This document shows positions 1,745-49,436 of a stretch of DNA of 64,000 bases, piece by piece. Below the pieces are notes generated by a model. That model was not told the DNA's origin and searched no databases. It worked only from the letters and a program-made list of their open reading frames with translations. Both the position numbers and the translations under genes were made by a program. Each line of letters starts with the position of its first letter. Positions within the stretch are counted from its first letter, which is position 1. This stretch comes from Thermoanaerobaculia bacterium (GTDB taxonomy: Bacteria > Acidobacteriota > Thermoanaerobaculia > Multivoradales > JAIOJS01): positions 19,732 to 83,731 of the forward strand of contig DASYQD010000039.1 in the NCBI GenBank assembly GCA_036005845.1, given 5' to 3'.

Positions 1745-4093
1745 ATGATCGGTCAGACCCTCCTCCACTACCGGGTGCTCTCCAAGATCGGCGAGGGAGG
1801 CATGGGCGAGGTGTTCCTCGCCCTCGATACCAAACTCGAACGCCAGGTGGCGCTCAAGGTGCTGCCGCATGACATGGCGTCCAATCCGCGGCGCTGGGAG
1901 CGCTTCGTGCGCGAGGCGCGCGCCATCGCCGCGTTGAACCACCCCAACATCGTCACCATCTTCGCCGTCGAGGAGGCCGAAGGCCGCCACTTCTTCGCCA
2001 TGGAGCTCATCGAGGGTGAGACGCTCGAGCGGATCGTCCACAGCCCCGGCCTCGAGCTCGACCGCTTCTTCTCGATCGCCACGCCCCTCGTCGACGCCCT
2101 CGCCGCCGCCCATCGCCAGGGCATCCTCCACCGCGACCTCAAGCCCGAGAACGTGATGGTGGGCCGCGACGGCCGCGTCAAGGTGCTCGACTTCGGCGTC
2201 GCCAAGGCGATCGGGCAGCAGGAGAAGACAGAGGCCGCCGGCATGCGGCGGCGCAATCTCACCGAGGAAGGCTCGGTCCTTGGCACCGCGCGCTACATGT
2301 CGCCGGAGCAGGCGTGCGGCGAGCCGGTCGACCAACGCACTGACATCTTCTCGCTCGGCATCGTGCTCTTCGAGATGGCGACCGGCTCCTATCCGTTCCA
2401 GGGTCGCACCGCCGCGGAGGTTCTCTCCTCGATCCTCCGCGATGAGCCGCCGTTGGCGCATACCGTGCGACGCGAGCTGCCTACCCGCTTGAGCGCCGCC
2501 ATCCACCGCTGCATGCTCAAGCGCATCGAGCTGCGCTACGGGTCGGCGGACGAGCTTGGCCGCGACCTCGACGCCGTGCGGCGCGAGCTGGCGGCGACGC
2601 CCGTGCGTCACGGCGTCGACCGCACGGTTGCCGAGCCGGTGGCGCGCGCGCGGGTCGCCGACCGCCAGTATGGGCCGAGCGGTATCACCAAGACCCCCAG
2701 CCCCGCCTTGGCGGTGCTGCCGCTGGTCGACCTCGCGGCCGGGCCCGACTACTTCGTGGAAGGACTCACGGAGGAGCTCATCACCGCCGTCGCCAAGGTG
2801 GGCTCGATGCGGGTGATCTCACGGCAGTCGATCATGCGCTACCGCGGCTCCGACAAGCCGCTGCCGGAGATCGCCAGCGAGCTCGGCGTCGACCACATCC
2901 TGCAAGGCTCGGTGTTGCGCGCCGGTGACCGCGTGCGCATCTCGCTGCAGCTGGTGCGCGCCGACCCCGAGGAGCATCTCTGGGCCGAGCGCTACGAGCG
3001 CAGCGTCGGCGACGTGCTCGCCGTCCAGCACGAGATCGCTCGCGCGGTGGCGAGCGAGATCCTCTCCAAGCTCACCTTCGGCGACGACGTGTCGGAGCCC
3101 GCCGCCCCGGTCGCTCCGGAGGTGCTCGAGGCCTACCTCAAGGGCCGCTACTACGTGAAGAAGCGGACCCACGACAGCTCGCAGAAGGCGCTCACTTTCT
3201 TCCAGGAAGCGATCGACCGCGATCCGCTGCACGCCCCCTCGCACGCCGGTTACGCGGACGCGCTGGCGCTGATCGGCCACGAGCGCCCATCGCCGCAGAT
3301 CGCCGAGCGCGCGCGGGCGGCAGCACGCCGGGCGCTCGAGCTCGACCCCGCGCTGGCCGAGGCGCACGCCTCGCTCGGCTTCATCAGCTTCTACTACGAA
3401 TGGGACTGGGCGGCTGCCGAAGCCGAGTTCCAGCGCGCCCTCGAGCTCGCCCCGAACGAGGCGACCATCCACCACTGGTACTGGTCGCTGCTGGTGACCA
3501 CCGGCCGTCGCGAAGAAGCTGGCCGCCAGATCCGTCTCGCCTGCCAGCTCGACCCGCTGTCGCCGATCATCGTCACCAATCTCGGGGTGCACTACTACCT
3601 GTGCGGCGATCCGGTGCGCGCCGTGCGCCAGGTCGCCAAGGCGCTCGACATCGAGCCCGAATTCCGCTGGGCGCACTTGCTGCTGTGGCGGGCGCAGGAG
3701 CAGCTCGGCGAGCTCGACGCCGCGGTGCGTTCCCTCGCGCGCGGGCTGCGCGGGCTTTCGCGCGACGACGTGGCCGCCACCGTCGAACGGCTCTACCCGC
3801 AGGTGGGTTATGGCCCGGCCGCGCAGGCGGCGGCCGAGCAACTGATGACGACCGGTCCTGCGCCGGTACCCCTGGACACCGTGGCGATGCTCTACCTGGC
3901 CAACAATTGCCGCGAGCAGGCCATGGCCCTGGTCGAAGAGGCCTTCGCCGCCCGCCTCACGCTGGTCGTCTGGCTGGCAGTGGCGCCGGAGTGGGCCCCG
4001 TTGCGCGACGACCCGCGAATGCAGCGGCTGCTTTCGCGCGTGCACCTGCAGGCGGGACCGGCAGCAGGCGGGGCCCGCGTGGCTCCCGCCTAG
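1745..4093 (+). CDS. Ser/Thr protein kinase with TolB-N-like and TPR repeat C-terminal region
   Basis: N-terminal Hanks kinase motifs: GEGGMGEV, VALK, HRDLKPENVMV, DFGVAKA, SPEQ. Followed by LAVLPLVDL...EGLTEELITAVAKVGSMRVISRQS (TolB_N-like) and multiple TPR-like helices. ATG at 1745. Confidence 0.9.
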   Translation: MIGQTLLHYRVLSKIGEGGMGEVFLALDTKLERQVALKVLPHDMASNPRRWERFVREARAIAALNHPNIVTIFAVEEAEGRHFFAMELIEGETLERIVHSPGLELDRFFSIATPLVDALAAAHRQGILHRDLKPENVMVGRDGRVKVLDFGVAKAIGQQEKTEAAGMRRRNLTEEGSVLGTARYMSPEQACGEPVDQRTDIFSLGIVLFEMATGSYPFQGRTAAEVLSSILRDEPPLAHTVRRELPTRLSAAIHRCMLKRIELRYGSADELGRDLDAVRRELAATPVRHGVDRTVAEPVARARVADRQYGPSGITKTPSPALAVLPLVDLAAGPDYFVEGLTEELITAVAKVGSMRVISRQSIMRYRGSDKPLPEIASELGVDHILQGSVLRAGDRVRISLQLVRADPEEHLWAERYERSVGDVLAVQHEIARAVASEILSKLTFGDDVSEPAAPVAPEVLEAYLKGRYYVKKRTHDSSQKALTFFQEAIDRDPLHAPSHAGYADALALIGHERPSPQIAERARAAARRALELDPALAEAHASLGFISFYYEWDWAAAEAEFQRALELAPNEATIHHWYWSLLVTTGRREEAGRQIRLACQLDPLSPIIVTNLGVHYYLCGDPVRAVRQVAKALDIEPEFRWAHLLLWRAQEQLGELDAAVRSLARGLRGLSRDDVAATVERLYPQVGYGPAAQAAAEQLMTTGPAPVPLDTVAMLYLANNCREQAMALVEEAFAARLTLVVWLAVAPEWAPLRDDPRMQRLLSRVHLQAGPAAGGARVAPA

Positions 4094-4587
4094 CTGGTGC
4101 TGTCGCCCGGCGGAGCCACGAGAGCGAAGCACCCCGGCGGCGCATCGTCGCCCAGGTACTTGCGCACCTTGTCCGCGTCGTGGCTCTTGAGGACGGCCTT
4201 CTCCTTGGCGCCGATTCCGGCGTCATCCAGCGTCTTGTCGGGATCGGCGAGGTAGCGCTGGCGCAGGCTGTGGTCGGTCGAGGCCTTGGTGATGAAGTCG
4301 AGCGCCTTCTGCTTGGAGGACGTGCCGCCCGCGGTACGCTTTGCCGGCTTCCGCTTCGCCGGCGTCGTCTTCGCCGCCGGCTTCTTCGCGGCGGACTTCT
4401 TCGCCGCGGTCTTCTTTGCGGCGCCCTTCTTCGCGCCGCGCCGGCTCGCTGCCGGTTTGCGCGTCGCCGTCTTCTTCGCGCCGCGCCGGGCCGCACCCTT
4501 CTTCGCCGCAGCCTTCTTCGGCTTCGACTTTCCCTTGCCACCGCCCTTCTTCGCTGACGACTTCTTCGCCGCCTTCTTCTTAGCCAT
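4090..4587 (-). CDS. Histone H1-like lysine/alanine-rich nucleoid-associated protein with a small C-terminal globular domain
   Basis: 165 aa. The N-terminal ~100 aa are almost pure K/A/G/R/T low complexity (MAKKKAAKKSSAKKGGGKGKSKPKK...). C-terminal ~55 aa (SLRQRYLADPDKTLDDAGIGAKEKAVLKSHDADKVRKYL) appears folded. Its 3' end overlaps the convergent kinase gene by 4 nt. Confidence 0.7.
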   Translation of the reverse strand: MAKKKAAKKSSAKKGGGKGKSKPKKAAAKKGAARRGAKKTATRKPAASRRGAKKGAAKKTAAKKSAAKKPAAKTTPAKRKPAKRTAGGTSSKQKALDFITKASTDHSLRQRYLADPDKTLDDAGIGAKEKAVLKSHDADKVRKYLGDDAPPGCFALVAPPGDSTS

Positions 4588-4736
4588 TCCCTCCTCCTTC
4601 CATTTCAGTTGTCGCTAGGGACAATGCGAGTAGGGTACGCCTCCCCAGCCGACGCGGTCAACCATCTGTCAGATGGGACGGACGCCGTCAGGGCATTCCC
4701 GCAACGGCGCCGCTGCTACACTCGCGCGATCCCACC

Positions 4737-5546
4737 GTGACGAAGCGACCGTCGCTGACTATCGTCGGGACCGGCTTCCTCGTCGCCGGTCAGGTGACCC
4801 CGGAGTCCTGGTCGGCCATCCAGGTGTCCGACCGCTTCTTCTTCATCGTCGGCGAGCCGGCGACGCGCCTCTGGCTCGAGCAGCAGCATCCGCGCGCCGA
4901 ATCGCTCCACGACGTGTTCTGGGACGGCCGGCCGCGCCAGCCCGCCTACGACGAGATCGTGGCGCGCATCCTCGCGCCGCTGCATCAGGGCCTCGACGTC
5001 TGCGCGGCCTTCTACGGACACGCCGGCGTCTTCGTGTACTCGTCGCACGAAGCCATCCGCCAAGCGCGAGCGGCAGGATTCACGGCCTCGATGCTGCCGG
5101 CGGTCTCGGCCGAAGACTGCTTGTTTGCAGACCTCGAGATCGACCCGGCTCGCGACGGCTGCCAGAGCTTCGAGGCCACCGACTTCCTCGCTCGCAAGCG
5201 CGCCTTCGACCCGAGGAGCGGTCTCGTGCTCTGGCAGATCGGCGCCCTCGGCGTCGTGCACTATTACCATCGCGATCTGTGGAACCGCGACGGTCTCGAT
5301 TACCTGGTCGAGGTTTTGCGGCGCAGCTACCCGGCCGACCATCCGGTCGTCGTCTACGAGCACATGCAGCTGCCGGTCTGCCCGCCGCTGATCCAGCGCA
5401 CGGCTCTCGCCGCGCTTCCGCGCTGCACGATCAACACGCACTCGACGCTGTGGGTACCGCCGGTGGCGAAGGCGCCCGTCGATGAGGCGATGCTGGCGCG
5501 AATCCGCACGAGCTCCCTGCATCGGCTCTACGCGGAGGCAGTGTGA
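4737..5546 (+). CDS. Tetrapyrrole-methylase-fold alpha-N-methyltransferase, OphMA/SonM (borosin) like, paralog 1
   Basis: GTG start. Motifs SLTIVGTGFLVAGQVTPE, AAFYGHAGVFV, MLPAVSAEDCLFADLEIDP, CQSFEATDFL and VPPVAKAP match the borosin N-methyltransferase core as I recall it from OphMA and SonM. The FYGHPxV motif replaces the GDP motif of CobA/CysG-type methylases. Confidence 0.8.
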   Translation: MTKRPSLTIVGTGFLVAGQVTPESWSAIQVSDRFFFIVGEPATRLWLEQQHPRAESLHDVFWDGRPRQPAYDEIVARILAPLHQGLDVCAAFYGHAGVFVYSSHEAIRQARAAGFTASMLPAVSAEDCLFADLEIDPARDGCQSFEATDFLARKRAFDPRSGLVLWQIGALGVVHYYHRDLWNRDGLDYLVEVLRRSYPADHPVVVYEHMQLPVCPPLIQRTALAALPRCTINTHSTLWVPPVAKAPVDEAMLARIRTSSLHRLYAEAV

Positions 5547-6367
5547 CGCGCGGCCGGACCAAGGTCGGGAGTCTGACCGTCGTCGGAACCGGCTACAACG
5601 TCGCCGGTCAGGTGACGCCGGAAGCGAGGTCCTGCATCGAAGCGGCCGAGCGCGTCTTCTACCTGCTCTCGGACTCCGCCACCAGCGGCTGGCTCAAGAC
5701 GCTCAACGTGAAGGCCGAGTCGCTCCACGACTGCTATCGGGTCGGCGAGCCGGGCCCTCAGGCCTGCGAGCGGATGGTCGAGCGCATCGTGCTGGCGGTG
5801 CGTGCGGGAGCCGACGTCTGCGCCGTCTTCTACGGCCACCCCGCCGTCTGCGTGGCGCCCGGCATCGAGAGCGTGCGACGCGCGCGCACCGAAGGTTTCG
5901 CCGCACAACTGCTCCCCGCCATCTCCTTCGAGGACTGCCTCTTCGCCGACCTCGGCGTCGACCCCGGCAGCTCGGGGAGGCTGATGTACGAAGCGACCGA
6001 CTTCCTGGTCCGCCCGCGAACCTTCGACACCACCGCGGCGCTGATCCTTCTGCAGGCGGGGGCGATCGGGCTCGTCGACTTCACGGCCGGCGACCAGCCC
6101 AACGTCGCTGGTCTCGCGGTGTTGACCGAGGTGCTCCTGCGCCACTACCCGCCGACGCACCGGGTGGCGCTTTATCGCATGTCGCAGCTGCCGATCTTCC
6201 CGCCCCGGATCGACTGGATGGCACTGGCCGACTTGCCCAGTGCCGGCGGGCTGTCGGTGGTCTCGACACTCTTCGTGCCGCCGCTCGCTCAGCGGCCGTT
6301 CGACCGCGAGGTCTTTTCCCGACTCCAGCAGATGGCGGCGAACGTGCCGAACGCTTCGCATCCCTGA
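5543..6367 (+). CDS. Tetrapyrrole-methylase-fold alpha-N-methyltransferase, OphMA/SonM (borosin) like, paralog 2
   Basis: GTG start overlaps the stop of paralog 1 (GTGTGA), indicating translational coupling. Motifs GSLTVVGTGYNVAGQVTPE, AVFYGHPAVCV, LLPAISFEDCLFADLGVDP, YEATDFL and FVPPLAQRP. The Tyr of the paralog-1 AYDEI segment is Cys here (QACERM). Confidence 0.8.
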   Translation: MTRGRTKVGSLTVVGTGYNVAGQVTPEARSCIEAAERVFYLLSDSATSGWLKTLNVKAESLHDCYRVGEPGPQACERMVERIVLAVRAGADVCAVFYGHPAVCVAPGIESVRRARTEGFAAQLLPAISFEDCLFADLGVDPGSSGRLMYEATDFLVRPRTFDTTAALILLQAGAIGLVDFTAGDQPNVAGLAVLTEVLLRHYPPTHRVALYRMSQLPIFPPRIDWMALADLPSAGGLSVVSTLFVPPLAQRPFDREVFSRLQQMAANVPNASHP

Positions 6368-6379
6368 GAGGAACCCGCC

Positions 6380-7606
6380 GTGAAATACGACCTGCGCAAG
6401 GTAGGGCTGCTCACCGTCGTCTATGCGAGCCAGGGCATCTCGCCGGGCTTCGCCGCCTTCGCCATGCCGGTGCTCTTGCGCAAGCAGGGAGTGTCGCTGC
6501 AGGCGGTGGGGTTCGCGATGCTGCTCTTGCTGCCATTCGCGTTCAAGTTCGTGTGGGGGCCGTGGAGCGACCGGCTTGCACGGCGCGGCACCATTCGCCA
6601 ATGGATGGGCGCCCTGCAGATCGTGCTCGCCGCGGTGATGGCGTCGCTCATCTTGCTGCCGCCGGCGCACGGCGTCGCGCCCTTCCTCGTCGTCGTCGGG
6701 CTCGGCTACGTGATCGTGTCCGTGCTCGACACCGTGACCGACGGGATCACCGTCCGTCTGCTCTCCCCCGAGGAGCGGCCACTGGGCAACGCCGCGCAGT
6801 TCGGCGGCTATTACGCGGGCAGCATCCTCGCCGGCGGGCTCTTCCTCGCCATCGAGCCGCGCATCGGCTGGGGCCCGGCGGTGGCGATGCTGGTGCTGCT
6901 CGTCGCCAGCGGCTGGGCGGCCGGGCGCGCGCTGCCGCCGCTGCCGCCGGCCACGGTCGCGTCGACTGAAAAGGCCAGCGTGCTCGCCTTCCTGCGCGGC
7001 CCGTCGTTCCGCTACGTCATCCCGCTCCTGTTGCTGCTCGACATGCCGCAAAACGTCGGCATCGCGCTGGTGGCGCCATTCCTCATCGACAACGGCCTCA
7101 CGCAAGCGCAGGTGGGACTGGTCTCCGGCACCTTCGGGCTGCTCGGCGCCTTCGCCGGCGCCGCGCTCGGCGGCGCCGCGCTGGCGCGGTTGCCGCGGAT
7201 CCGCGCGCTGATGCTCGCGGCCTTCCTGCAGGTGCTGCCGCTGTTCGGCTTCGCCTGGCTGGCGGCGCACCGCGGCACGTCGCTGCTGGCACCGATCGTC
7301 ATCACCACCGTCGCCTTCGGGCTCGCCAGCCTGTTCAACGTCGCGATCTCGTCCTGGTTCATGGACCAGGTGTCGCCGGCGCAGCCGTCGACCGACTACA
7401 GCTTGATGGCCTGCGCGCACACCGCGAGCTTCGCGCTCGCCAACCCGATCGCCGGCGCCAGCGCGTCGGCGCTCGGCTTCCGCCTCCACTTCACCGTAGT
7501 CGGCGCGGTGGCGCTGCTGTTGGTGATCGCGTCGTGGCCGTGGCTGCGACGGCTGGCGAAGCCGCGCTATGCACCGATCGCGGCCGAGATGGCGGCGGCC
7601 GGCTGA
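6380..7606 (+). CDS. MFS transporter (AmpG/PAT-like family)
   Basis: 408 aa with about 12 TM helices. LRKQGVSLQAVGFA...FVWGPWSDR motif is typical of the AmpG/PAT subfamily. Starts 12 nt after the second methyltransferase with a GAGGA RBS and GTG start. Confidence 0.85.
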   Translation: MKYDLRKVGLLTVVYASQGISPGFAAFAMPVLLRKQGVSLQAVGFAMLLLLPFAFKFVWGPWSDRLARRGTIRQWMGALQIVLAAVMASLILLPPAHGVAPFLVVVGLGYVIVSVLDTVTDGITVRLLSPEERPLGNAAQFGGYYAGSILAGGLFLAIEPRIGWGPAVAMLVLLVASGWAAGRALPPLPPATVASTEKASVLAFLRGPSFRYVIPLLLLLDMPQNVGIALVAPFLIDNGLTQAQVGLVSGTFGLLGAFAGAALGGAALARLPRIRALMLAAFLQVLPLFGFAWLAAHRGTSLLAPIVITTVAFGLASLFNVAISSWFMDQVSPAQPSTDYSLMACAHTASFALANPIAGASASALGFRLHFTVVGAVALLLVIASWPWLRRLAKPRYAPIAAEMAAAG

Positions 7607-7613
7607 GCGGCGC

Positions 7614-8033
7614 TCAGCGCCACAAGCCGAGCAACACCGCGGCGGCGACGAACGACACCAGGTTGTAGCCCGAGTTGATGAGCCACAACGGTTTCGGCGT
7701 CTGCGAGAAGATCGCCGTCGCGAAGCTCGTCGGCGCCGCGAAGCCGAGCCAGCAGAGGAAGCCCACCGCCGCGGCGCGCCCGAGCGTCACCGGCGGGAAG
7801 TGGTTGAGCACCACCGCCATTGCCCAGGCGATCACCAACCCGGAGAGGAAGGCGAGGCCGTAGAGAAGCGCCACCGGCGAGCCGGCGGCGCTCGCCTTGA
7901 GCTCTTCCTCCGTCTTGCCCATCAGCGCCATCCAGCGCTTGGCGAACAGCACCGAGTACCACAGCCCTCCGAGCACGAAGATCAGGATCCCTGCGACGAG
8001 AACGGCGAGATAGTTGACGGCCGGAAGCGTCAT
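7614..8033 (-). CDS. DUF1761-family small membrane protein
   Basis: 139 aa with 4 TM segments. LLYGLAFLSGLVIAW and FLCWLGFAAPTS pattern resembles DUF1761. Confidence 0.6.
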   Translation of the reverse strand: MTLPAVNYLAVLVAGILIFVLGGLWYSVLFAKRWMALMGKTEEELKASAAGSPVALLYGLAFLSGLVIAWAMAVVLNHFPPVTLGRAAAVGFLCWLGFAAPTSFATAIFSQTPKPLWLINSGYNLVSFVAAAVLLGLWR

Positions 8034-8047
8034 GGGAAGCCCTCCAT

Positions 8048-11000
8048 GTGAGCTGGAATCGATGGACTCCGATCATGGCACGAAGGGGTGGGTGTCCGAT
8101 GTCAGATCTCGCTCTCGAACGCGCAGTCAGGTCCCGCCACGCACGGTCGATGCGTCACCCTCGGCACCGCGGCCGCTGGCTGGGCCCGGTCGTACTCCTG
8201 ACATTGGCGGGCTGCGGCATCGTCGACCGCGCCCGACAACACCCCTACACCCGAGCGCACGCGTCGCTGGTCGCGGCCGCGGATGGGCGGCGCCCGGCGC
8301 AAGGGTGCGTCTCGGGCTTCCCGTGTGGCGCGAGCGCGGGTCCAGCCGGACCGGTGCGCGCTGCACACCTTCGGCAGGCAGCGGCGGCGATCGAGGCGGA
8401 CCTCGACCGCGCACGTACGAGCTCGACCCTTGGTGCCGCGGCCTCGCTTCAGCTCTACCTCCATCGGCCGGCTGAGGCCCTCGCGCTCCTCGACGAGGCC
8501 GCGGCCCTGCGCGGCGCCGATCCGCGGCTCGTCGTCGATCGCGCCGCCGCGGTGCTCGAGCTCGACGGCTCCCGCCCCGGCGGAGCCGCCGACGAGCTTG
8601 CCGCCACGGCGGAGCTCATGGACCGCCCGCCGCTTGGAGATCCAGAGCTGGCCGCGAGATGGCGCTACAACCACGCCCTGTTGCTCGAGCGGCTCGGCCT
8701 GGAAACCGCGGCCGCCGACGACTTGCGAGCTGTGACCGGCGGCGGCGAGCTGGCGCCCTTGGCGGCCGAGGGTGTCGCGCGCCTGCAGGCCGCGGCAGCA
8801 TCGTCACGGTGGGACGCCGGCGACCGCCAGCTTCTGGCCAACGCTCTCGCCCGCGACGACGCCGCAGCCGTCTCCCGCCTCGTCGACCGCTGGCCGCTCG
8901 CCGCGGCGACCCAGGTGGAGGAAACGATCCTCGCGGAGGTCGCCGGGAACGCCGACCGGCTGCGCCAGGCGGAGCTCATCGCCACGGCGCTCGCACGCCG
9001 CGGCGATCCTTTCCTGTCCGAAGTCGTCGCCGGGTTGCGCGCCGACCCGAGCCCCGATCTCCGAGCCGCTCATGCCGACTACGGCCGTGCCCGCGCTCTC
9101 GAGCACGCCGGCAAGTACGAGCAGGCGCTGCCGTTGTTCACCGACGCCGCCGGCGCCTTCACCCACCGCCGCAGTCCCTTCCGTTGGCTCGCCAGCCACG
9201 GCTTGGCCACCTGTCTCTACCGGACGCAACGACCAGCCGCCGGACTTGAGCTGCTCCGCTCTTCGCTGCACGCGGCCCCGAAGCGCTACCACCACGTGCA
9301 GGCGCGGTTGGAGTGGCTGGCCGGCATTTTCGAGAGCGTGCTCGGCGACCCGGCCGCGTCGCTCGACGAGTATTCGCGCGCATTCGCGCTGTACCGGGAT
9401 GACAAGAACGACGAAGGGATGGCCAGGTTGGAGATGCTGACCGCCGAGGGTTGGTGGACGCTGGGCGAGTGGCGCCAAGCATGGCGGCACCGGCGCCAGG
9501 CCCTCGCGCGCCTACGCCGAGTCGCTGACCCCCAGCTGCAGCGAACGATCCTCGACGAGGCGGCCGATGCGAGCGGCGGTGACGGGTTCCTCGCCCTGGC
9601 GGGGATGCTCCAGGACAGCGTCGTGGAGAGCGCCCGTACAGCGCACAACGACTACGCGCTGCCGGTCGCGCTCGCTCAGCGCGCCCACATCAGCCTTCGC
9701 CGCCGGCTCTGGGCCGCGGCCACGGCGGACCTCGCCGCCGCGCGTGGCGGCGTCGAGGCGATCGCCGCCGGCAAGTACCGCCAAAACATCGACGCCTCCG
9801 TCGCGATGGTCGAGGCCGAGGCGCTGGCGCGAAACGAACCGCAACAGGCGATCCGAAAACTGGCGGCGGCGACCGTCTTCTATGAAGAATCGAACAATTG
9901 GGTGCCGTTGAGGACCGCCGCCATGTTGACCGCGAGCTGTTACCTCCGCCTGGGCGACCACGCCGCCGCGCTCGAAGCGCTGAAGAGAGCGGAAGCGCTG
10001 GGCGAGCGCGTGCGTAGGCAGAGCCCGAGCGAACGCGTGCGGGCGGCGTTGGACAATGGGTCTCAGCAGCTCTACGGCGAGCTCGTGCGGCTGGCGCTCG
10101 ATCGCGGCGGCGACGCCGGCATCGCCGAGGCGTTCGACTACTCCGAGCTCTCACGGGCCCGTCGCCTCGCCGACTCGCTGGGAGCTTCGCAAGTCGAGCT
10201 GTCCGATCTGAGCAGGGCGCTGCCAGCCGGGACCGCGATGGTGGTCTACGAAGATCTGGGCAGCGCTTTGGTCGCCTTCGTGGTGCGCGCCGACCGCGAC
10301 CCCGCCGTCGTCACCTTGGATCGCCAGGGCCTCACGGCCGACGTCGCGCTGGTGCGCCGGTCCCTGGCCGGCAGGTCCGCCGACGTTCCGTGGAAGCAGG
10401 GTCTCGCCAGCCTGTGGCGCCGGCTGGTGGCGCCGCTCGAGCCGCGGCTCGGCGGCATCTCGTCGCTGGTGGTGGTGCCGCACCGCGAGCTGGTGACGGT
10501 CCCGTTCGCCGCCCTCTTCGACCCGCGCCGGCAGCGTTACCTGATCGAGGACTACCGGCTGCAAATCGCGCCCTCGGCGACCGCATTCGTCAACGCCCTC
10601 GCCCAGTCTCGACAGCGGCAGGGTCCGCCGGCGGTGCTCGCGGTCGCCGCCGGTGAGAGCAGCGGCGATCTCGCGTCGGTGCTCCCTCGCCTGCCGCGAG
10701 CCAACGCAGCCGCGCGCGCCGTCGCCGCTCGTTACCCGCATGCGGACCTCCTCATCGGCGCGGCGGCGACTCGCGATGCATTCCTCTCCGCTGCCGCGCG
10801 CAGCACGATCATCCACTTCGACGGCCACTCGGTGGCCAGCGCCGTGGATCCGTCGCTGTCGTTCCTCGCCCTGACCGCGAGTAAGGAAGATGCCGGCATC
10901 CTCTACGCCCAGGACATCGCGAAGCAGCGCTGGCCATCCGCACAGCTGGTGTTCCTCGCCAGCTGCCACACCGCCCAGGGCCGGAGCGACGACGCCGAAG

Positions 11001-11251
11001 GCATCCAGGGTTTGGCGCGGGCTTTCCTGGCCGCCGGCGTCCCCGCCGTGATCGGCACGCTGTGGGACGTCGACGATCGTCTCGCCGAGACCGTTTCGCT
11101 ACGTTTTCACGAGCACTATGCAACGGGCTCGGATGCGGCGTCGGCGCTGCGTTCCGCCCTGCTGTCGGTGCTCGCCAACGAACGCCAGGCACCGCCGGCC
11201 TGGGCCGCGTTCGAAGTCATCGGCGGCGTCGCTGAACCGACGATTCACTGA
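8048..11251 (+). CDS. TPR-repeat CHAT-domain protease, probable lipoprotein
   Basis: About 1067 aa. N-terminal positively charged region followed by VVLLTLAGC lipobox. Long TPR/helical-repeat middle. C-terminal CHAT domain with His/Cys dyad context (IIHFDGHS ... LVFLASCHTAQG ... VIGTLWDVDD). Alternative starts at 8099 or about 8150 are possible. Confidence 0.85.
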   Translation: MSWNRWTPIMARRGGCPMSDLALERAVRSRHARSMRHPRHRGRWLGPVVLLTLAGCGIVDRARQHPYTRAHASLVAAADGRRPAQGCVSGFPCGASAGPAGPVRAAHLRQAAAAIEADLDRARTSSTLGAAASLQLYLHRPAEALALLDEAAALRGADPRLVVDRAAAVLELDGSRPGGAADELAATAELMDRPPLGDPELAARWRYNHALLLERLGLETAAADDLRAVTGGGELAPLAAEGVARLQAAAASSRWDAGDRQLLANALARDDAAAVSRLVDRWPLAAATQVEETILAEVAGNADRLRQAELIATALARRGDPFLSEVVAGLRADPSPDLRAAHADYGRARALEHAGKYEQALPLFTDAAGAFTHRRSPFRWLASHGLATCLYRTQRPAAGLELLRSSLHAAPKRYHHVQARLEWLAGIFESVLGDPAASLDEYSRAFALYRDDKNDEGMARLEMLTAEGWWTLGEWRQAWRHRRQALARLRRVADPQLQRTILDEAADASGGDGFLALAGMLQDSVVESARTAHNDYALPVALAQRAHISLRRRLWAAATADLAAARGGVEAIAAGKYRQNIDASVAMVEAEALARNEPQQAIRKLAAATVFYEESNNWVPLRTAAMLTASCYLRLGDHAAALEALKRAEALGERVRRQSPSERVRAALDNGSQQLYGELVRLALDRGGDAGIAEAFDYSELSRARRLADSLGASQVELSDLSRALPAGTAMVVYEDLGSALVAFVVRADRDPAVVTLDRQGLTADVALVRRSLAGRSADVPWKQGLASLWRRLVAPLEPRLGGISSLVVVPHRELVTVPFAALFDPRRQRYLIEDYRLQIAPSATAFVNALAQSRQRQGPPAVLAVAAGESSGDLASVLPRLPRANAAARAVAARYPHADLLIGAAATRDAFLSAAARSTIIHFDGHSVASAVDPSLSFLALTASKEDAGILYAQDIAKQRWPSAQLVFLASCHTAQGRSDDAEGIQGLARAFLAAGVPAVIGTLWDVDDRLAETVSLRFHEHYATGSDAASALRSALLSVLANERQAPPAWAAFEVIGGVAEPTIH

Positions 11252-11261
11252 GGAGAAGGCC

Positions 11262-12287
11262 ATGCAACCGAGACCCCACGAGCTGCCGATGAAGCCCACC
11301 TACCGCTTCCGTCTCGTCTTCGAATGCCTGTGCGCATTCCTGAAGCGCGACGACGACGTCCTCGTCGTGCTCCCCGACGGCCGCTACGGCTGCCCGCCCA
11401 TGCCCAGCCACTGCGACCACGCCGGGGACGGCGACGCCGCCGGCCACGAGGCGTGCGGCCCGAACATGCCGGCGCACATCGCCGCCATCCAGTTCAACCC
11501 CTGCGAGCTGGCGCCGGACAGCGATCTGCAACCCGACCTCGTCTTTCGGCGGCCGGGGGCGCGCAGCGAACAGGCGCTCCTCTTCCTGACCGGCCAGGAC
11601 ATCGCGCTCGACGCGCCGCTGTTCGGCGCCCCAGCGATCGCCGGCGGCCGCGGCGCGGCGGCAGTGCCGCAGTCGGCCGCCGAGGCCGAGGACCTCTGCT
11701 GGGTCGCCGACGTCTCGCGGATCGATGCCGCGGCGGGAGTCATGGACCCGTCGTGCGCGCAGCCCGGAACCAACGCCTCGTTGACCGGGGAGCCGAGCTC
11801 GCCCGGGCGGGTGGTGGCGCGCGTCAGCCTCAAGGGCGGCACGCTCCGCTCTCTGGTCCTCGGGCTCGACGAGCAGCAGGAGCCCATCCTCTTCGACTTC
11901 CAGGAATCCGACGCGCTGATCCCCAACGGTTTCCAGCAGGCCATCACCTCGGCCGTGGCCTGGGACGTCGCCGTCGGCGAGGAGACCGTGACGCTCGTGC
12001 TGAGCTCGTTCGACGGCACGACGCGGCGGCTGCAGTTCTCCTTCGCCGGCCTGCCGATGGGGTACACCATGCAGGTGCTGGTGAAGAACATGCCGCTCGA
12101 CTCGCTCCTCGAGGTGCCGTACTGCATCTATCCCGGCGACACCATCGCCGTCGACCACCACTTCGCGATGTACTACGCGCTGTCGCAGAGCCCGCCGCGC
12201 AACTTCTGGGTGCCCCTCGAGACGGCCGCGCGGGCAAACGGGCCGATCTGCCCCAGCGCCTCGTTCGTCGAGGGAGCAGCGACCTAG
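11262..12287 (+). CDS. Hypothetical protein (Cys-rich N-terminus), co-operonic with CHAT and trypsin-like genes
   Basis: ATG at 11262 sits 5 nt after an AGGAGA RBS and 10 nt after the CHAT stop. 341 aa with coding-like GC3. No recognisable domain. Confidence 0.55.
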   Translation: MQPRPHELPMKPTYRFRLVFECLCAFLKRDDDVLVVLPDGRYGCPPMPSHCDHAGDGDAAGHEACGPNMPAHIAAIQFNPCELAPDSDLQPDLVFRRPGARSEQALLFLTGQDIALDAPLFGAPAIAGGRGAAAVPQSAAEAEDLCWVADVSRIDAAAGVMDPSCAQPGTNASLTGEPSSPGRVVARVSLKGGTLRSLVLGLDEQQEPILFDFQESDALIPNGFQQAITSAVAWDVAVGEETVTLVLSSFDGTTRRLQFSFAGLPMGYTMQVLVKNMPLDSLLEVPYCIYPGDTIAVDHHFAMYYALSQSPPRNFWVPLETAARANGPICPSASFVEGAAT

Positions 12288-12339
12288 TGATCTCCATGCA
12301 GTGCCGGTCCTCTTCACTGCTTACCTGTGTGAGCGATCG

Positions 12340-13269
12340 ATGCCGCCGGTCATCATCGACGTGCCGGCGGACCCGCGGCGAGAGGTCAGGGACTCTTGCC
12401 CCGCGGCCAGGCGGCTGGCGGCATCGGTCGCGGTCATCTTCGACGGCGTACCGCCGCTGCGATCGAGCGACGGGACCTGGTCGCTGCCCACCAAGCCGGC
12501 GCCGGTGAGCCCGCCGGAGAGGTTTTCCGAACAGCGTGAGGTGGTCAGGGCTTTCACCGGCGTGCTCGTCGGGCCCGACGTGCTGCTCACCACGCGCCAT
12601 CGGGTGAACGTCCGCAACCCGCAAGGACTCTTTGCGGCGTTCGGTTTCGCGATCGGCGCCGATGGAATCCCCAAGACGCGTTTCGCCAGCGACGAGGTCT
12701 TTCGCGTGTGCGAGGTCCTCGGTGAGGGAAGGTATCTCGCCAACCCCGAGGACGACTGGCTGCTGCTGCGCCTCGACGCCAAGCCGGCTCGCCCGGCCCT
12801 CGAGCTCGATACTCGGCCGCTGACCAGCGGCACTCGGCTGTGGATGATCGGGCATCCGGAAGGATTGCCGATGAAGTTCGTCGACGGCGCTCACGTGATC
12901 GACACCAGCGAGCGCTCCGTGCTCACCGATCTCGTAGCGAGCCGAGGCAACTCCGGCTCGCCGGTGTTTCGCGAGGGGTCGGCGGCGGTGCTCGGCATCC
13001 TGCGGACGGCGTCCCTCTCGCTCGCGCGAGCAGGGGCGAAGGTGACCTGGCAGCGCGGCAAGCCCGGCGCGCCGCGCATCGCCCGCGTCACGCGTAGCCA
13101 GGCCTTCGCCGCGAGACTGCAGGAAGTCTTCGCCGCCGCGCCTGCGGCGGACGTGGATGCCGTCGCGGTCGCCGGTCTCGGCGACGGCGCGCCAATGCGC
13201 GGTCAGCTCGCCTGGACGGCGGCCGCCGCCAGCAGGCCGGCGGTGCAGGCAACACCGCCGCCGGCGTGA
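12340..13269 (+). CDS. Trypsin-like (S1/chymotrypsin-fold) serine peptidase
   Basis: Catalytic triad context: LLTTRHRV (His), DWLLLRLD (Asp), GNSGSPVF (Ser). No signal peptide. The 3' end overlaps the convergent oxidoreductase gene. Confidence 0.75.
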   Translation: MPPVIIDVPADPRREVRDSCPAARRLAASVAVIFDGVPPLRSSDGTWSLPTKPAPVSPPERFSEQREVVRAFTGVLVGPDVLLTTRHRVNVRNPQGLFAAFGFAIGADGIPKTRFASDEVFRVCEVLGEGRYLANPEDDWLLLRLDAKPARPALELDTRPLTSGTRLWMIGHPEGLPMKFVDGAHVIDTSERSVLTDLVASRGNSGSPVFREGSAAVLGILRTASLSLARAGAKVTWQRGKPGAPRIARVTRSQAFAARLQEVFAAAPAADVDAVAVAGLGDGAPMRGQLAWTAAAASRPAVQATPPPA

Positions 13270-14774
13270 CTGCCACTACCGCCGAGGTAGAGGCCGGGCA
13301 CGGCGGTGGTGTAGCGGGCGCTCGAGGCAGTCGGACGCAGCACGAGCAGCTGATCGAGCGCCGGCTCGCCGTGGTGGAGCTGACCGCCGGTCAGAGCGTA
13401 GCGGTCGGCGAGGTCGGCGGGAGCAAGCAGCTCGTCGGCGACGAGACGTTCCCGAATCGTTGGGGCGTGGCGCTCCAACATCGACAGTACCGACTCGACG
13501 AGCCCCTGGCGGCGTTCGTCCGTCCAGCCGCCGTCGAGTTGGTGTGAGACGTAACTCACCACTACTGACGCCACATGGTGGCCGGTCGGGGCCAGGCTCG
13601 CATCCGAGACCGTCGGCACGCGCACGTCGAGATGCGGCTTGGCCGAGACGCCGTGGTACTTCACGGCGTCGAAGGCGCGTTCGAGGTCGTCGACGTGGCC
13701 GCCGCCGATGCGGATGGATTCGAAGAGTTGGCCAGGGCGCGCCGCGAGCTCGAGCGGGCCGTTCAGCGCCAGGTGAAGCTTCGCGGCCGTGCCGCGCATT
13801 CGGATGCGGCGGAACTCCTCCTCGACGCGGATGGGCAGCGTGCCGGGCGCGATGAGCTGGAGGAAAGTGCGCTTGGGGTCGCAGGTCGCGATGATGGTGG
13901 CGGCGTCGATCGTCTCGACGCCATCGCCGTCGCCGGCGACCTTTCCCAGGGTGACGCCGGCCGCCTTGCCGCTCTCGATGCGGATCTGCGCCACCTCGGC
14001 GCCGGTGCGGATCTCTACGCCTGCAACCCTTGCCGCGCGTTCGAGTGCCGCGATCAACGCCGGCGGGCCACCTTGCACGAATCGGCCCGGCGCCGCTTCG
14101 TGGAGGAGCAGATTGGTGGTCGTCCCCGCCGACCAAGGGCCGGCGAAGGTGCCGATCACCGCCGGCGCCGCGAGGCCTTCCACCAGCAGCGGCGTCTCGA
14201 ACTGCTCGTTGAGGAAGTCGGCGACGCACATCGGGGCCACGCGCATCAGCTCGAGCGTGTCGTGGCGGCCGAGGCGCCACAGCCCCAGCCCGCGCTTCGC
14301 GAGGTCCCAGAAGTCGCCGGCGCCTGAGGGCGACAGCGGCGGCGGCGGCGAGGTCATCACCTGTTCGACGAGCGGGCGCAGCTTGGCGATGAAGGCGCGA
14401 TAGCGATGGTAGGCGTCGGCGTCGTGGCGCGACCGCGTGGCGAGCTCCGCTTCGGCCTTCGCGGGATCCCGATCGAGCAGGATGCCGAGACCACCCTCCT
14501 CTGCCAACAAGGTCGGCGGCGCGTCGCGCCACCTCAAGCCGTGCTTCTCGAGCCCTAGCGCCGCGACGACAACCGGCGACACCAGGCCTTCGTCGTGCAA
14601 GACGCCTGGCGCCTTGTAGCCAGGATGAAACTCGATCGCACCGCAAAGCCCGCCCAGCTCGGTGCGCCGCTCGAGCACCACGACCTTCTTGCCCGCCCGC
14701 GCCAAGCGCACCGCCGCCGCCAGCCCGTTCTGCCCGCCGCCGATCAAGATCGCGTCGTACCGCGCCGAGCTCAC
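13203..14774 (-). CDS. NAD(P)/FAD-dependent oxidoreductase, phytoene desaturase (CrtI)-like family, copy 2
   Basis: GTG start overlaps the stop of the upstream paralog (GTGTGA). N-terminal Rossmann motif YDAILIGGGQNGLAAAVRLARAGKKVVVLERR and CrtI-like C-terminal LYLGGSGSHAGGGV. The 1034-aa single ORF shown in the track is a read-through of two genes in one frame. Confidence 0.8.
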   Translation of the reverse strand: MSSARYDAILIGGGQNGLAAAVRLARAGKKVVVLERRTELGGLCGAIEFHPGYKAPGVLHDEGLVSPVVVAALGLEKHGLRWRDAPPTLLAEEGGLGILLDRDPAKAEAELATRSRHDADAYHRYRAFIAKLRPLVEQVMTSPPPPLSPSGAGDFWDLAKRGLGLWRLGRHDTLELMRVAPMCVADFLNEQFETPLLVEGLAAPAVIGTFAGPWSAGTTTNLLLHEAAPGRFVQGGPPALIAALERAARVAGVEIRTGAEVAQIRIESGKAAGVTLGKVAGDGDGVETIDAATIIATCDPKRTFLQLIAPGTLPIRVEEEFRRIRMRGTAAKLHLALNGPLELAARPGQLFESIRIGGGHVDDLERAFDAVKYHGVSAKPHLDVRVPTVSDASLAPTGHHVASVVVSYVSHQLDGGWTDERRQGLVESVLSMLERHAPTIRERLVADELLAPADLADRYALTGGQLHHGEPALDQLLVLRPTASSARYTTAVPGLYLGGSGSHAGGGVACTAGLLAAAAVQAS

Positions 14775-16360
14775 ACGACTCTCCCGCCCAGCATCGTCTT
14801 CGCGCACAGCGCCCCCGGCGCGCCCATGATCCCGCCGCCAGGGTGAGTGCCCGAGGCGCACATCCACAGGCCGTCGATCGGTGTGCGGTATCGGCTCCAA
14901 CCAGCGATCGGCCGCAGGAAGGCAAGCTGCTCGAGCGACAGCTCGCCGTGGAAGATGTTGCCCTCGGTCAGCCCGTAGATCTGCTCGAGGTCCCACGGCG
15001 TGAGCACCTGGCGGTGCAGGATGCGGCTCTTCAAGTTCGGCATGTACTCCGAGAGCGTGTCGATCACCGCGTCGCCGAAGGCCTCGCGCTGGTTCTCCCA
15101 GTCGGCGGCGCCTTCCTTGAGGTTGTACGGCGCGTACTGCACGAAGATAGACATCGTGTGCTTGCCTGGCGGCGCCACGGTCGGGTCGGTCAGCGACGGA
15201 ATCACCACGTCCATGAACGGCTTCCTCGAGAACGCGCCGTACTTGGCGTCGTCGTAGGCGCGCTCGAGGTATTCGATCGACGGCGCGATGGTGATGTCGC
15301 CGCGCAGGTGCGGGCCAACGCCGGGCAGGCAGGCGAACTCGGGCAGCGCGTCGAGCGCCAGGTTGACTTTGCCCGAGGAGCCGCGCATCTTGAAGCGCTT
15401 GACCTGCTTGGCGAGCTCGGGGTCGAGATGCTTCTCGCCCACCAGCCGCAGGAACGTGCGGTGTGGGTCGACGCCGGAGATCACCGCCTTGCACGCGATC
15501 TCGTCGCCGTTCTCGAGCACCACGCCGTCGGCGCGGCCGTTCTTCATCCGCACGTGGTCGACCGGCGCGTTGACGCGGATCTCGACGCCGAGCTCCGTCG
15601 CCGCCGCCGCGATCGCGTTCGCTACGGCGCCGGTGCCGCCCTTGGGCAGTCCCCACGCGCGATACGAGCCGTCGATGTCGCCCATGTAGTGGTGCAGCAG
15701 CACGTAGGCGGTGCCGGGCGAGCGCACGCCGAGGAAGGTGCCGATGATGCCCGACACCGACATCGGCGCGATGAGCTGCTCGCACTCGAACCACTCGCTG
15801 AGGAAGTCGAACGCCGACATCGTCATCATCTTGACGTTGCCGATCAGCCACTCCTCGCCCTGGCCGCGCACGTGCTTGGCGAACTTGGCGAGCCGCAGCA
15901 GCTCGAGGGGATTGCGCGATACCGGGTCGGGGGCCGGGCCGTCGACCATCGGCTTGACCAGGCGGCCAAGCTCGGCCATCTTCTGGCCGAACTCCTTGTA
16001 GACCTCGGCATCGCGCGGCGAGAACCTGGCGATGGCCCGTTTGGTGCGCTCGGGGTCGGAGTCGCGCAGCAGGTAGCGGCCGTCGGGGAACGGCGTGAAG
16101 GTCTCCTCGAGCGGCAGCACCTCGTAGCCGTGGCGCGGCAGGTCGAGGTCGCGGATGATCCACGGCCGCAGCAGCGACACGACGTACGAGCAGCAGGTGT
16201 AGTGGAAGCCGGGGTAGATCTCTTCCGTCGTGGTGGCGCCGCCTACTTGGTGGCGGCGCTCCAGGACGAGCACCTTGCGGCCAGCTTTCGCGAGATACGC
16301 CGCGCACACCAGGCCGTTGTGACCGGCGCCGACGATGACGGCGTCGTAACGGACGCTCAT
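14771..16360 (-). CDS. NAD(P)/FAD-dependent oxidoreductase, phytoene desaturase (CrtI)-like family, copy 1
   Basis: ATG at 16360 (MSVRYDAVIVGAGHNGLVCAAYLAKAGRKVLVLERR) with GGGA RBS. C-terminal LWMCASGTHPGGGIMGAPG typical of COG1233. Confidence 0.85.
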   Translation of the reverse strand: MSVRYDAVIVGAGHNGLVCAAYLAKAGRKVLVLERRHQVGGATTTEEIYPGFHYTCCSYVVSLLRPWIIRDLDLPRHGYEVLPLEETFTPFPDGRYLLRDSDPERTKRAIARFSPRDAEVYKEFGQKMAELGRLVKPMVDGPAPDPVSRNPLELLRLAKFAKHVRGQGEEWLIGNVKMMTMSAFDFLSEWFECEQLIAPMSVSGIIGTFLGVRSPGTAYVLLHHYMGDIDGSYRAWGLPKGGTGAVANAIAAAATELGVEIRVNAPVDHVRMKNGRADGVVLENGDEIACKAVISGVDPHRTFLRLVGEKHLDPELAKQVKRFKMRGSSGKVNLALDALPEFACLPGVGPHLRGDITIAPSIEYLERAYDDAKYGAFSRKPFMDVVIPSLTDPTVAPPGKHTMSIFVQYAPYNLKEGAADWENQREAFGDAVIDTLSEYMPNLKSRILHRQVLTPWDLEQIYGLTEGNIFHGELSLEQLAFLRPIAGWSRYRTPIDGLWMCASGTHPGGGIMGAPGALCAKTMLGGRVV

Positions 16361-19881: not shown

Positions 19882-20862
19882 GTGGCCGCAACCGCGAAGC
19901 GCAGGACTTTCCAGCCCACCAAGGGCAGGGGCAAGGCGAAGGGCAAGCTGCCCGAGCTGCGGCTGGGCACCGGCTGGCTGCCGGAGCCTCCCGACGAGCG
20001 CGACCTGACGGTGGATCACCAGCCGCTCCAGGGCATGCTGGCGAAGCTGCGGCTGGGGAGAATGATCGTCAAGAAGGTGCTGCCGCCCAAGGTCGACCTC
20101 AGCAAGTGGGCCGGCCCGGTGCAGTTCCAGGGCGGCTTCAACACCTGCAACGCCCACGTCGTCGCCGGCCTCGTCACCTACTTCGAGCGCAAGGCGCACG
20201 GCAACGAGATCGCGCCGTCGCGGCTCTTCCTCTACAAGGTGGCGAAGAACTTCCTGCAGGCGACCGACAACGCCGGCGTCTACATCCGCCAGGTGATGGG
20301 CGTGCTCAAGCTCGTCGGCGTGCCGCCCGAGAAGTACTGGCCCTACCCCGATCCCGGCACCTACCAGAAGCCGCGCTCGAGCGACCCGCTGCTCGACGCC
20401 GAGCCCTCCTCATTCTGCTACGCCATCGCCAACGACTACCGAGCGATCACCTACTACCGGCTCGACGAGCCGGACCAGAGACCGGCGGCCCTGCTGCATT
20501 TGGCCAAGGCGCACCTCGTGGCGCAGGTGCCGTTCGCGTTCGGCTTCCCGCTCTATCAGCTGCTCGGCGAAGCGACGACTACCGGGCGGATCCCGTACCC
20601 ATCGGCCGAGCAGGCGCCGCTCGCCAACCACGCCGTCGTCGCCATGGGCTACGACGACGACATCGTCATCGGCAAGGGCATCAAGGGCGCGGCGGCCACC
20701 CGCGGCGCCATCCGCATCAAGAACTCGTGGAGCGAGAGCTGGGGCGAGAAGGGCTATGGCTGGCTGCCGTACGAGTACGTCCTGCAGGGGCACACACGTG
20801 ACTTCTGGACGCTGCTGCGCAGCGAGTGGGTCGATACCGGGGCGTTCCAGCTCATCAGCTGA
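19882..20862 (+). CDS. Papain-like (C1 family) cysteine peptidase homolog
   Basis: QGGFNTCNAHVV (catalytic Cys context), HAVVAMGYDD (His), NSWSESWGEKGYGW (Asn-Ser-Trp). GTG start with GGAGAAGGGG RBS. Basic GK-rich N-terminus. Confidence 0.7.
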   Translation: MAATAKRRTFQPTKGRGKAKGKLPELRLGTGWLPEPPDERDLTVDHQPLQGMLAKLRLGRMIVKKVLPPKVDLSKWAGPVQFQGGFNTCNAHVVAGLVTYFERKAHGNEIAPSRLFLYKVAKNFLQATDNAGVYIRQVMGVLKLVGVPPEKYWPYPDPGTYQKPRSSDPLLDAEPSSFCYAIANDYRAITYYRLDEPDQRPAALLHLAKAHLVAQVPFAFGFPLYQLLGEATTTGRIPYPSAEQAPLANHAVVAMGYDDDIVIGKGIKGAAATRGAIRIKNSWSESWGEKGYGWLPYEYVLQGHTRDFWTLLRSEWVDTGAFQLIS

Positions 20863-49378: not shown

Positions 49379-49436
49379 TACCGGCGACGCACGCGCAGCG
49401 CATGCGGAACGAAGCGCGACGGGGAACGACGAAGCG

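Follow-up and report, generated by a model that had tools for sequence, protein, structure and literature searches.

A putative split-borosin gene cluster with a canonical and a degenerate N-methyltransferase in a Thermoanaerobaculia bacterium

Two N-methyltransferase paralogues in tandem

The locus described here lies in a 64,000-nucleotide stretch of contig DASYQD010000039.1 from a Thermoanaerobaculia bacterium (the window, to which all positions refer; 70% G+C), and it likely constitutes a split, trans-acting borosin cluster, borosins being peptides that are made on ribosomes and modified after translation (RiPPs). Its two N-methyltransferase (NMT) genes lie in tandem: NMT1 (4737..5546, +, 269 aa, GTG start), encoding the predicted catalytic borosin alpha-N-methyltransferase, and NMT2 (5543..6367, +, 274 aa, GTG start), encoding a degenerate paralogue that is predicted to be its non-catalytic partner. 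The stop codon of the former and the start codon of the latter share GTGA at 5543-5546. The precursor gene (4090..4587, -, 165 aa, ATG start at 4587) diverges from NMT1 across 149 bp (4588..4736), presumably the site of the promoters for both genes; no match was found there to the sigma-70 consensus, which is uninformative for this phylum. Convergent to the precursor gene is a gene for a predicted Ser/Thr kinase (1745..4093, +, 782 aa), and the stop codons of the two overlap at 4090-4093 in the palindrome CTAG. A major facilitator superfamily (MFS) transporter gene (6380..7606, +, 408 aa) starts 12 nt past the NMT2 stop, and a gene for a papain-like (C1) cysteine peptidase (19882..20862, +, 326 aa) lies 13.5 kb from NMT2.

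The sole Pfam match of NMT1 and NMT2, which are 47% identical to each other, was TP_methylase (PF00590; E 1e-16 and 7e-14, respectively). Searches against PDB sequences returned SonM and OphMA/dbOphMA as the best matches of NMT1 (E 3e-50 to 8e-49; SonM 6e-50, OphMA 7e-49) and OphMA/dbOphMA and SonM as those of NMT2 (E 3e-52 to 6e-46; OphMA 3e-52, SonM 6e-46). At E <= 0.01, all 25 matches of each protein were borosin-type peptide N-methyltransferases (SonM, OphMA, dbOphMA and MroMA), placing both in the OphMA/SonM-type borosin alpha-N-methyltransferase family and not with enzymes of the CobA/CysG/RsmI type. An earlier note on this DNA, made from its letters, had recognized borosin-type enzymes with the tetrapyrrole-methylase fold; since the PDB matches are borosin-type throughout, this assignment was correct, and the uroporphyrinogen, precorrin or rRNA methylase clade that it had named as a refuting placement is not where the proteins fall. 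The tandem overlapping genes of 269 and 274 aa and the MFS gene 12 nt downstream agree in position and length with that note, the overlap being read here as GTGA, and nearly all of its motifs recur: SLT(I/V)VGTG, (M/L)LPA(V/I)S(A/F)EDCLFADL, EATDFL, VPP(V/L)A(K/Q) and AYDEI/ACERM are present in NMT1/NMT2. Only FYGHP does not hold for NMT1, which reads FYGHAGV, with Ala and not Pro; NMT2 reads FYGHPAV.

To compare the active sites, we relied on the mutational analysis of SonM, in which R67A left no discernible activity, R67K and Y71F each lowered activity ~100-fold, Y58F 14-fold and Y93F <2-fold, and measurable activity remained in all mutants except R67A and the Y58F/Y71F double mutant (PMC8429565). 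F99 and W166 of SonM form a "bottom lock" closing on S-adenosylmethionine (SAM), and the characterized borosin NMTs all act as homodimers (PMC8429565). The OphMA equivalents of SonM Y58, R67, Y71 and Y93 are Y66, R72, Y76 and Y98. The SonM positions were mapped onto every NMT domain in the 79 genome loci that encode NMT1 relatives; 15 metagenome loci were added to give 94 related loci, which carry L numbers below. At the positions of SonM Y58/R67/Y71/Y93/F99/W166, NMT1 has F/R/Y/Y/F/W and NMT2 has Y/G/C/Y/C/L. NMT1 therefore keeps the Arg-Tyr pair and NMT2 does not, and the Cys of NMT2 that had led the earlier note to propose one inactive or scaffolding paralogue sits at the SonM Y71 position; the comparative data below strongly back that proposal. 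The Phe of NMT1 at the Y58 position recurs in two single-NMT loci (L011 and L014).

Across the 79 loci, R67, Y71 and Y93 are kept in every single or upstream NMT, and the R67/Y71 pair is absent as a pair from all second domains. In the 21 second domains that adjoin or are fused to a canonical NMT, Arg67 is replaced by Gly in 19 and by Trp in L076, and is kept in L030, whose second domain has lost Y71 and Y93. Y71 is nearly always lost as well and what stands in its place varies (C, A, S, G or V), the second domain of L002 retaining the Tyr and lacking the Arg, and Y93 is also lost in many second domains. A neighbour-joining tree rooted with an outgroup, which replaced midpoint rooting that was misleading owing to long branches, united 22 degenerate domains including NMT2 in one clade, whose sister group is formed by canonical NMTs of Acidobacteriota and Gemmatimonadota; NMT1 groups with the canonical NMTs. 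The degenerate clade has lost F99 and W166 and keeps the GTG, GHP, LPAiS.eDC, EATDF and STLYVPP motifs. Separately, L020 carries a third, strongly degenerate NMT-like open reading frame (ORF) (5165-5914, +), ~2 kb upstream of its precursor, NMT1 and NMT2 genes, with V/F/V at the R67/Y71/Y93 positions.

The two kinds of domain occur together. The 4-nt stop/start overlap of NMT1 and NMT2 is found in seven loci (the window, L002, L004, L006, L007, L008 and L082), and in eight others (L005, L028, L030, L031, L039, L050, L089 and L091) both domains are fused in proteins of 515-580 aa. These fusions are scattered through the clade in the tree, which implies that fusion or fission took place repeatedly, a well-known mark of proteins that interact physically. 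Wherever an NMT2-type domain was seen in the genome loci, a canonical NMT was directly upstream of it or fused to it, which fits a dependent subunit. A search of 1.84 billion cluster representatives, made exhaustively with HMMER, retrieved 1835 family members, and the best 150 of these included 15 two-domain proteins, most with a canonical N-terminal (YRYYFW) and a degenerate C-terminal domain, as well as 22 single-domain degenerate proteins. One fused cluster holds the 540-aa Xanthomonadales protein NRB72604.1 from a metagenome-assembled genome (MAG), which is of the published Type IX kind. Two eukaryotic transcriptomes also yielded two-domain borosin-type NMTs: P0131 (918 aa) from the dinoflagellate Scrippsiella acuminata, with the degenerate domain first, and P0133 (768 aa) from the amoebozoan Clastostelium recurvatum, with both domains canonical.

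From these patterns we infer that NMT1 and NMT2 would form a heterodimer in place of the usual homodimer, NMT2 being non-catalytic. NMT1 is accordingly predicted to be the functional catalytic member, and NMT2 is a family homologue that should not be filed as a functional borosin N-methyltransferase. Since the motifs kept by the degenerate clade line the SAM pocket and its members are full-length ORFs that persist across phyla, both paralogues might instead be active, either with different regiospecificity or with NMT2 methylating another atom (a Cys thiol, the N-terminus or a carboxylate), sequentially on one precursor and as homodimers or a heterodimer. The activity left in most SonM mutants would be in keeping with this, as would the almost invariant Cys of the precursors described below. 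We nevertheless think such a division of labour unlikely, because the four residues lost in NMT2 are those needed for SonM catalysis or for its closed conformation, the variable replacements at the Y71 position (C, A, S, G, V, H) have fixed no new catalytic residue, many NMT2-type members lack Y93 too, and the constant company of a canonical NMT fits dependence.

The divergent precursor gene

The earlier note saw no precursor ORF nearby, which was wrong: the divergent upstream gene at 4090-4587 (-) encodes what the sequence and a structural model identify as a SonA-like borosin precursor of the type with a borosin-binding domain (BBD). The C-terminal 77 aa of the protein on their own gave four weak PDB matches, two of them SonA, aligned over its binding domain. 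We used a profile (A1) built from ORFs neighbouring NMTs through two profile iterations, in which 33 precursor homologues were aligned. Searched against the PDB, it returned SonA as its top seven matches (E 6e-16 to 2e-15), followed by the BBD segment (residues ~320-376) of dbOphMA/OphMA (E 1.5e-5 to 4e-5) and by MroMA (E 4e-4). Of the 79 genome loci, 78 contain a precursor homologue, typically 68-75 aa long and in most cases encoded right next to the NMT.

AlphaFold2 modelled residues 91-148 (4144-4317, -) as five helices, with a predicted local distance difference test score of 86-91, and residues 1-90 as disordered; the five-helix bundle, the putative BBD, is followed by ...GDDAPPGCFALVAPPGDSTS. 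When the model was searched with Foldseek, SonA chains accounted for 29 of 38 PDB matches, with a root-mean-square deviation of typically 1.5-1.8 A over ~50 residues and TM-scores (normalized to the target) of 0.56-0.81, mostly 0.7-0.8. Pfam and NCBIfam gave sub-threshold matches only (Frankia_peptide, the NHLP clan and HC2 histone-like), which we treat as a lead; the resemblance to NHLP/nitrile hydratase is attributable to a shared LigA-like helical fold.

Residues 1-88 (4324-4587, -) form a disordered Lys/Ala-rich polycationic tail composed of Lys, Ala, Gly and Arg, with a net charge of +36, 41% K+R, 28% Ala and no acidic residue. A strong Shine-Dalgarno sequence (GGAGGAGG) precedes the ATG, and reading of the sequence from that codon (4587) to the BBD found no further start codon in frame (ATG, GTG or TTG), making the tail an obligatory part of the precursor. 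An 88-aa, +36 tail is unique to the window precursor and is absent from the precursors of the closest relatives L002 and L082; shorter polycationic extensions occur at either end in other loci (L010, L011, L033, L065 and L076). The tail could serve to keep the protein soluble, or to anchor it to a polyanion or the nucleoid. The middle region of the precursor reads KALDFITKASTDHSLRQRYLADPDKTLDDAGIGAKEKAVLKSHDADKVRKYLGDD.

Residues 149-165 (4093-4143, -) comprise the linker and core, LGDD-APPG-CFALV-APPG-DSTS, and the C-terminal end reads APPGCFALVAPPGDSTS. The linker LGDDAPPGC is conserved in the subtype and the Cys is almost invariant among the precursors, of which minimal forms are the most common (~68-70 aa, a BBD plus a hydrophobic end of 4-6 residues). 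In the profile register, C-F-A-L-V of the window stands against A62-L63(Me)-V64-I65(Me) of SonA. The window core differs from those of its relatives in having APPG on both flanks (DD-APPG-CFALV-APPG-DSTS); the relatives have the upstream APPG only and end after the hydrophobic stretch. The doubled flanks may represent two cleavage sites. Precursors of another form occur in single-NMT acidobacterial loci (L032, L033, L038, L044 and L060), which have long, repetitive, Lys-rich cores with repeats such as PIVKK, PVIRK, IKESTKIGKSSPRVA and ALPNIKTK, resembling the multi-core borosins of Types II and V.

Kinase, peptidase and other neighbours

The gene most consistently linked to the cluster after NMT and precursor is that for a kinase. 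The 782-aa product of 1745..4093 matched Pkinase (E 5e-47; residues ~9-270) and, in its C-terminal region, several TPR families, and its motifs GEGGMGEV, VALKVL, HRDLKPEN and DFG, corresponding to the Gly-rich loop, VAxK, HRD and DFG, mark it by sequence as a Hanks-type Ser/Thr kinase, which rules out the idea that this neighbour is an OphP-like prolyl oligopeptidase. No hydrophobic window of transmembrane quality was found in it. Full-length orthologues lie beside the NMT genes in L002 (72% identity), L008, L009, L010, L013 and L082, with identities that track those of NMT1. A kinase gene is present <=1 kb from the NMT gene in 37 of the 79 genome loci and <=4 kb away in 56. Within 1 kb of the NMT there are 2.8 kinase genes per 10 kb, versus 0.02 per 10 kb at 4-9 kb. 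The architectures of these partner kinases vary around a common sensor theme: Pkinase with TPR; Pkinase with AAA_16 or NB-ARC and MalT-like TPR (once with GerE); and, in Microcoleus, Pkinase with AAA_16, GAF and SpoIIE. Lanthipeptide-like phosphorylation of core Ser/Thr by the kinase was ruled out, as the cores hold no conserved Ser/Thr.

Several further observations concern kinases. The 4-nt CTAG overlap of the convergent kinase and precursor stop codons also occurs in the metagenome locus L082. The sole other kinase gene of the 64-kb window (48981-51218, +; E 9e-38 to the kinase domain of the 1745..4093 product) gives a rough background density. In Microcoleus and other Oscillatoriales (L036, L037, L043, L047, L054, L056 and other cyanobacterial loci; ~8000-16700), the gene order is fixed: a canonical NMT, two TPR proteins, a BBD precursor whose tail is rich in Pro/Asp (DPxPDPLPDPDP), and a ~1700-aa kinase with AAA_16, GAF and SpoIIE phosphatase domains. 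These loci represent a distinct, apparently uncharacterized borosin subtype.

Clustering all ORFs of the loci revealed a peptidase family of ~330 aa with a Peptidase_C1 signature. The product of 19882..20862 matched a hidden Markov model (HMM) of 13 cluster-linked homologues at E 4e-160 and Pfam Peptidase_C1 at E 2e-5, above the Pfam cut-off; its best PDB match was the cysteine protease 3ois (E 4e-30), and its QGGFNTC, NHAVVAMGYDD and NSWSESWG motifs, containing the catalytic Gln, Cys, His and Asn of the papain fold, are intact. The family is cluster-linked in 13 genome loci (12 of the 20 two-NMT loci plus L073, and none of the 58 others) and in seven metagenome loci, and its gene directly follows NMT2 in the closest metagenomic relatives L081, L082 and L086. 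The product of 19882..20862 is thus probably the leader peptidase of this borosin subtype. In the window, the gene is set among housekeeping genes for an IclR regulator, a GcvT-family aminomethyltransferase and an amine oxidase.

The MFS protein matched MFS_1 (E 3e-19) and, below the family cut-offs, RhtX/FptX (E 4e-38) and AmpG (E 1e-35). RhtX/FptX and AmpG are subfamilies of importers. An MFS homologue was found in none of the 79 genome loci and none of the 15 metagenome loci, ruling out a conserved exporter, and the comparison suggests a lineage-specific addition to the cluster. The role in product export proposed for this gene in the earlier note is therefore without comparative support; in L082, the nearest syntenic relative, the peptidase gene occupies its slot.

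The order in L082 is LCM-type methyltransferase, DUF4126, kinase, precursor (-), second precursor (+), NMT1, NMT2, peptidase and DUF1761 (-), from which the otherwise identical window differs in three respects, namely the MFS gene in the peptidase slot, a peptidase gene 13.5 kb away and a single precursor gene. Upstream of the kinase gene, the window encodes an LCM-family (leucine-carboxyl-methyltransferase) SAM methyltransferase (100-999, +) and a DUF4126 protein (1010-1585, -), both syntenic in the three closest relatives (L002, L009 and L082) and not beyond, and the LCM gene was on that account rejected as a cluster member. A carboxyl methyltransferase beside a cluster for peptides with hydrophobic ends is suggestive, and may be mere synteny. 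Downstream of the MFS gene lie genes for a DUF1761 protein (7614-8033, -), a TPR and CHAT (caspase-like) protein (8048-11251, +, 1067 aa) and a trypsin-like peptidase (12301-13269, +). Of these, DUF1761 alone is syntenic with L082; the TPR-CHAT and trypsin-like genes have no counterpart in the related loci and were likewise rejected. All of the ten nearest NMT1 relatives come from Thermoanaerobaculia (MAGs), on which ground an actinomycete origin, for which the 70% G+C might speak, was rejected; the protein of one neighbouring gene is 98% identical to that of a gene in L006. The DNA is probably that of a soil member of this class.

The kinase linkage allows two further readings. In one, peptide and kinase would be a cell-cell or intracellular signalling pair, the short N-methylated peptide being read by the TPR or STAND sensor of the adjacent kinase. 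A peptide of this kind would resist proteases and permeate membranes, so that no dedicated exporter would be needed, and the pair would resemble the RRNPP-type TPR peptide receptors, with a borosin as ligand and a Hanks kinase as output. We hold this pairing to be distinctly doubtful at present; if true, it would give bacterial borosins a conserved physiological function across Acidobacteriota, Gemmatimonadota, Chloroflexota, Myxococcota and Cyanobacteria. In the other, very improbable, reading, the full-length precursor with its histone-like tail would itself be the end product of a protein-modification or signalling module, N-methylated at its C-terminus to tune an interaction (with the kinase TPR, DNA or a membrane) and never cleaved or exported; the close kinase linkage, the absence of transmembrane segments and signal peptides from kinase, peptidase and NMTs, the lack of a conserved exporter, the 88-aa tail with its shorter counterparts in L033, L065 and L076, and the GGDEF signalling protein in the Shewanella son cluster, whose native role is described as elusive, would all accommodate it, but the tight linkage of the papain-like peptidase within the subtype argues for proteolytic release, most precursors look like leader-core peptides, and the Shewanella homologue gives a cleaved 16-mer.

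Proposed pathway and relation to known borosins

We consider it likely that the locus is a split borosin RiPP cluster, as the earlier note had suggested, comprising a BBD precursor, a heterodimer of catalytic NMT1 and its dead partner NMT2, papain-like processing and a kinase partner. The BBD of the precursor would dock on the NMT1/NMT2 dimer, and NMT1, as a SAM-dependent backbone amide N-methyltransferase, would methylate the C-terminal peptide ...GCFALVAPPGDSTS just after the conserved Cys; by register with SonA L63 and I65, F and L of CFALV are the residues expected to be methylated. NMT2, which keeps the fold and the SAM-pocket motifs and has lost the equivalents of the SonM top lock (R67), of Y71 and of the bottom lock (F99/W166), would be the structural or docking subunit of an obligate heterodimer with one active site per dimer. 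The papain-like peptidase would probably free a short, hydrophobic, N-methylated peptide, with cleavage predicted close to or at APPG|C, and the cytoplasmic Ser/Thr kinase with its TPR region would most likely tie that peptide to phospho-signalling, as sensor or regulator.

Several points weigh against this pathway. The peptidase gene is remote from the cluster in the window genome, and 8 of the 20 two-NMT genome loci show no peptidase gene, and 6 of the 20 no kinase gene, within the fetched DNA (some contigs being short). The Phe of NMT1 corresponds to a change that costs SonM 14-fold, and NMT2 keeps every SAM-pocket motif under clear constraint and may have residual or altered catalytic activity. 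In addition, the published analogue, Type IX, is itself not understood, its methylation being described as diffuse on Asp/Glu and poorly reproducible.

The subtype is uncharacterized and is found in Acidobacteriota and Gemmatimonadota. The searchable literature holds no description of systematic degeneracy of the second NMT or of its unfused, translationally coupled form, of the GDDAPPGC precursor subtype, or of a polycationic tail on a borosin precursor, and the searchable borosin literature makes no mention of a kinase or papain-like protease in such clusters. In the accessible part of the RODEO borosin supplement, APPGC-type cores, kinases and papain were likewise not found; the RODEO catalogue does list acidobacterial BBD precursors.

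Designers of peptide drugs set great store by backbone N-methylation, and to our knowledge borosin enzymes are the sole ribosomal route to it. A heterodimer of an active and a degenerate NMT would, if true, be a new borosin architecture, since the characterized NMTs are homodimers; it would account for the puzzling Type IX enzymes and offer an engineering scaffold with one active site. The comparative analysis assigns precursors to orphan-looking NMTs, defines a family of compact precursors that end in GDDAPPGC and 4-6 hydrophobic residues, and supplies, as candidate leader peptidase, a member of a class previously unconnected with borosins. The arrangement is conserved in many soil bacteria, and the strong linkage, seen across phyla, to genes for Ser/Thr kinases that have TPR or STAND sensors makes the role of bacterial borosins directly testable.

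Among borosins, which are classified as types 0-XI, the Type IV pair SonM/SonA of Shewanella oneidensis (PDB 7LTC and others; product shewanellamide A) shares with the window a discrete ~260-aa NMT without BBD and a short precursor, encoded separately, in which a five-helix BBD is N-terminal and the core C-terminal, related at profile E 6e-16 and in register with the methylated L63 and I65 of SonA. Both clusters also contain a signalling protein and a transporter, which in Shewanella are a GGDEF protein and a cation efflux pump. The window differs from Type IV in having two NMTs (269-274 aa, no BBD), one of them degenerate, with a heterodimer predicted in place of the SonM homodimer; in the Phe of NMT1 at the Y58 position; in the linker LGDDAPPGC with its very short hydrophobic end and in the 88-aa Lys/Ala tail; in a signalling partner that is a Ser/Thr kinase with TPR; and in a linked protease that is papain-like, not of the pepsin-like shewasin type.

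The Type I fused fungal enzymes OphMA/dbOphMA belong to the same methyltransferase family (NMT2 E 3e-52, NMT1 E 7e-49); their residues 320-376 are homologous to the precursor BBD (E ~4e-5), and the core is hydrophobic in both. Unlike the window genes, the fungal ones encode enzyme, BBD and core in one chain, which forms a catenane-like homodimer, and the fungal protease/macrocyclase is the prolyl oligopeptidase OphP. In its logic, though not by homology, the predicted NMT1/NMT2 pair resembles METTL3-METTL14, an active/degenerate paralogue pair in which the inactive subunit serves as scaffold or substrate platform. METTL3-METTL14 has a Rossmann class I fold, as opposed to the tetrapyrrole-methylase class III fold here, and its substrate is unrelated.

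A close arrangement is Type IX, SurM1/SurM2/SurA of Streptomyces ureilyticus, in which two borosin NMT domains accompany one BBD-bearing precursor (Imani et al., bioRxiv 10.1101/2021.12.24.474128). Only two Type IX sequences were known in 2021; the fused double-domain SurM1 is reported to be monomeric, unlike all other borosin NMTs, and the accessible text does not note degeneracy of the second domain (bioRxiv 10.1101/2021.12.24.474128). The resemblance extends to the orthologues of NMT1 and NMT2 that are fused in several genomes (515-580 aa) and to the 540-aa Xanthomonadales protein with a canonical N-terminal and a degenerate C-terminal domain. The window differs in that its two domains are separate, translationally coupled ORFs and not one fused polypeptide, and in that the cores here are hydrophobic, as against the diffuse Asp/Glu methylation described for SurA. 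We conclude that the window would represent the unfused form of the Type IX arrangement: an unfused Type IX-like split-borosin variant within a family that is itself known, and not a categorically new system.

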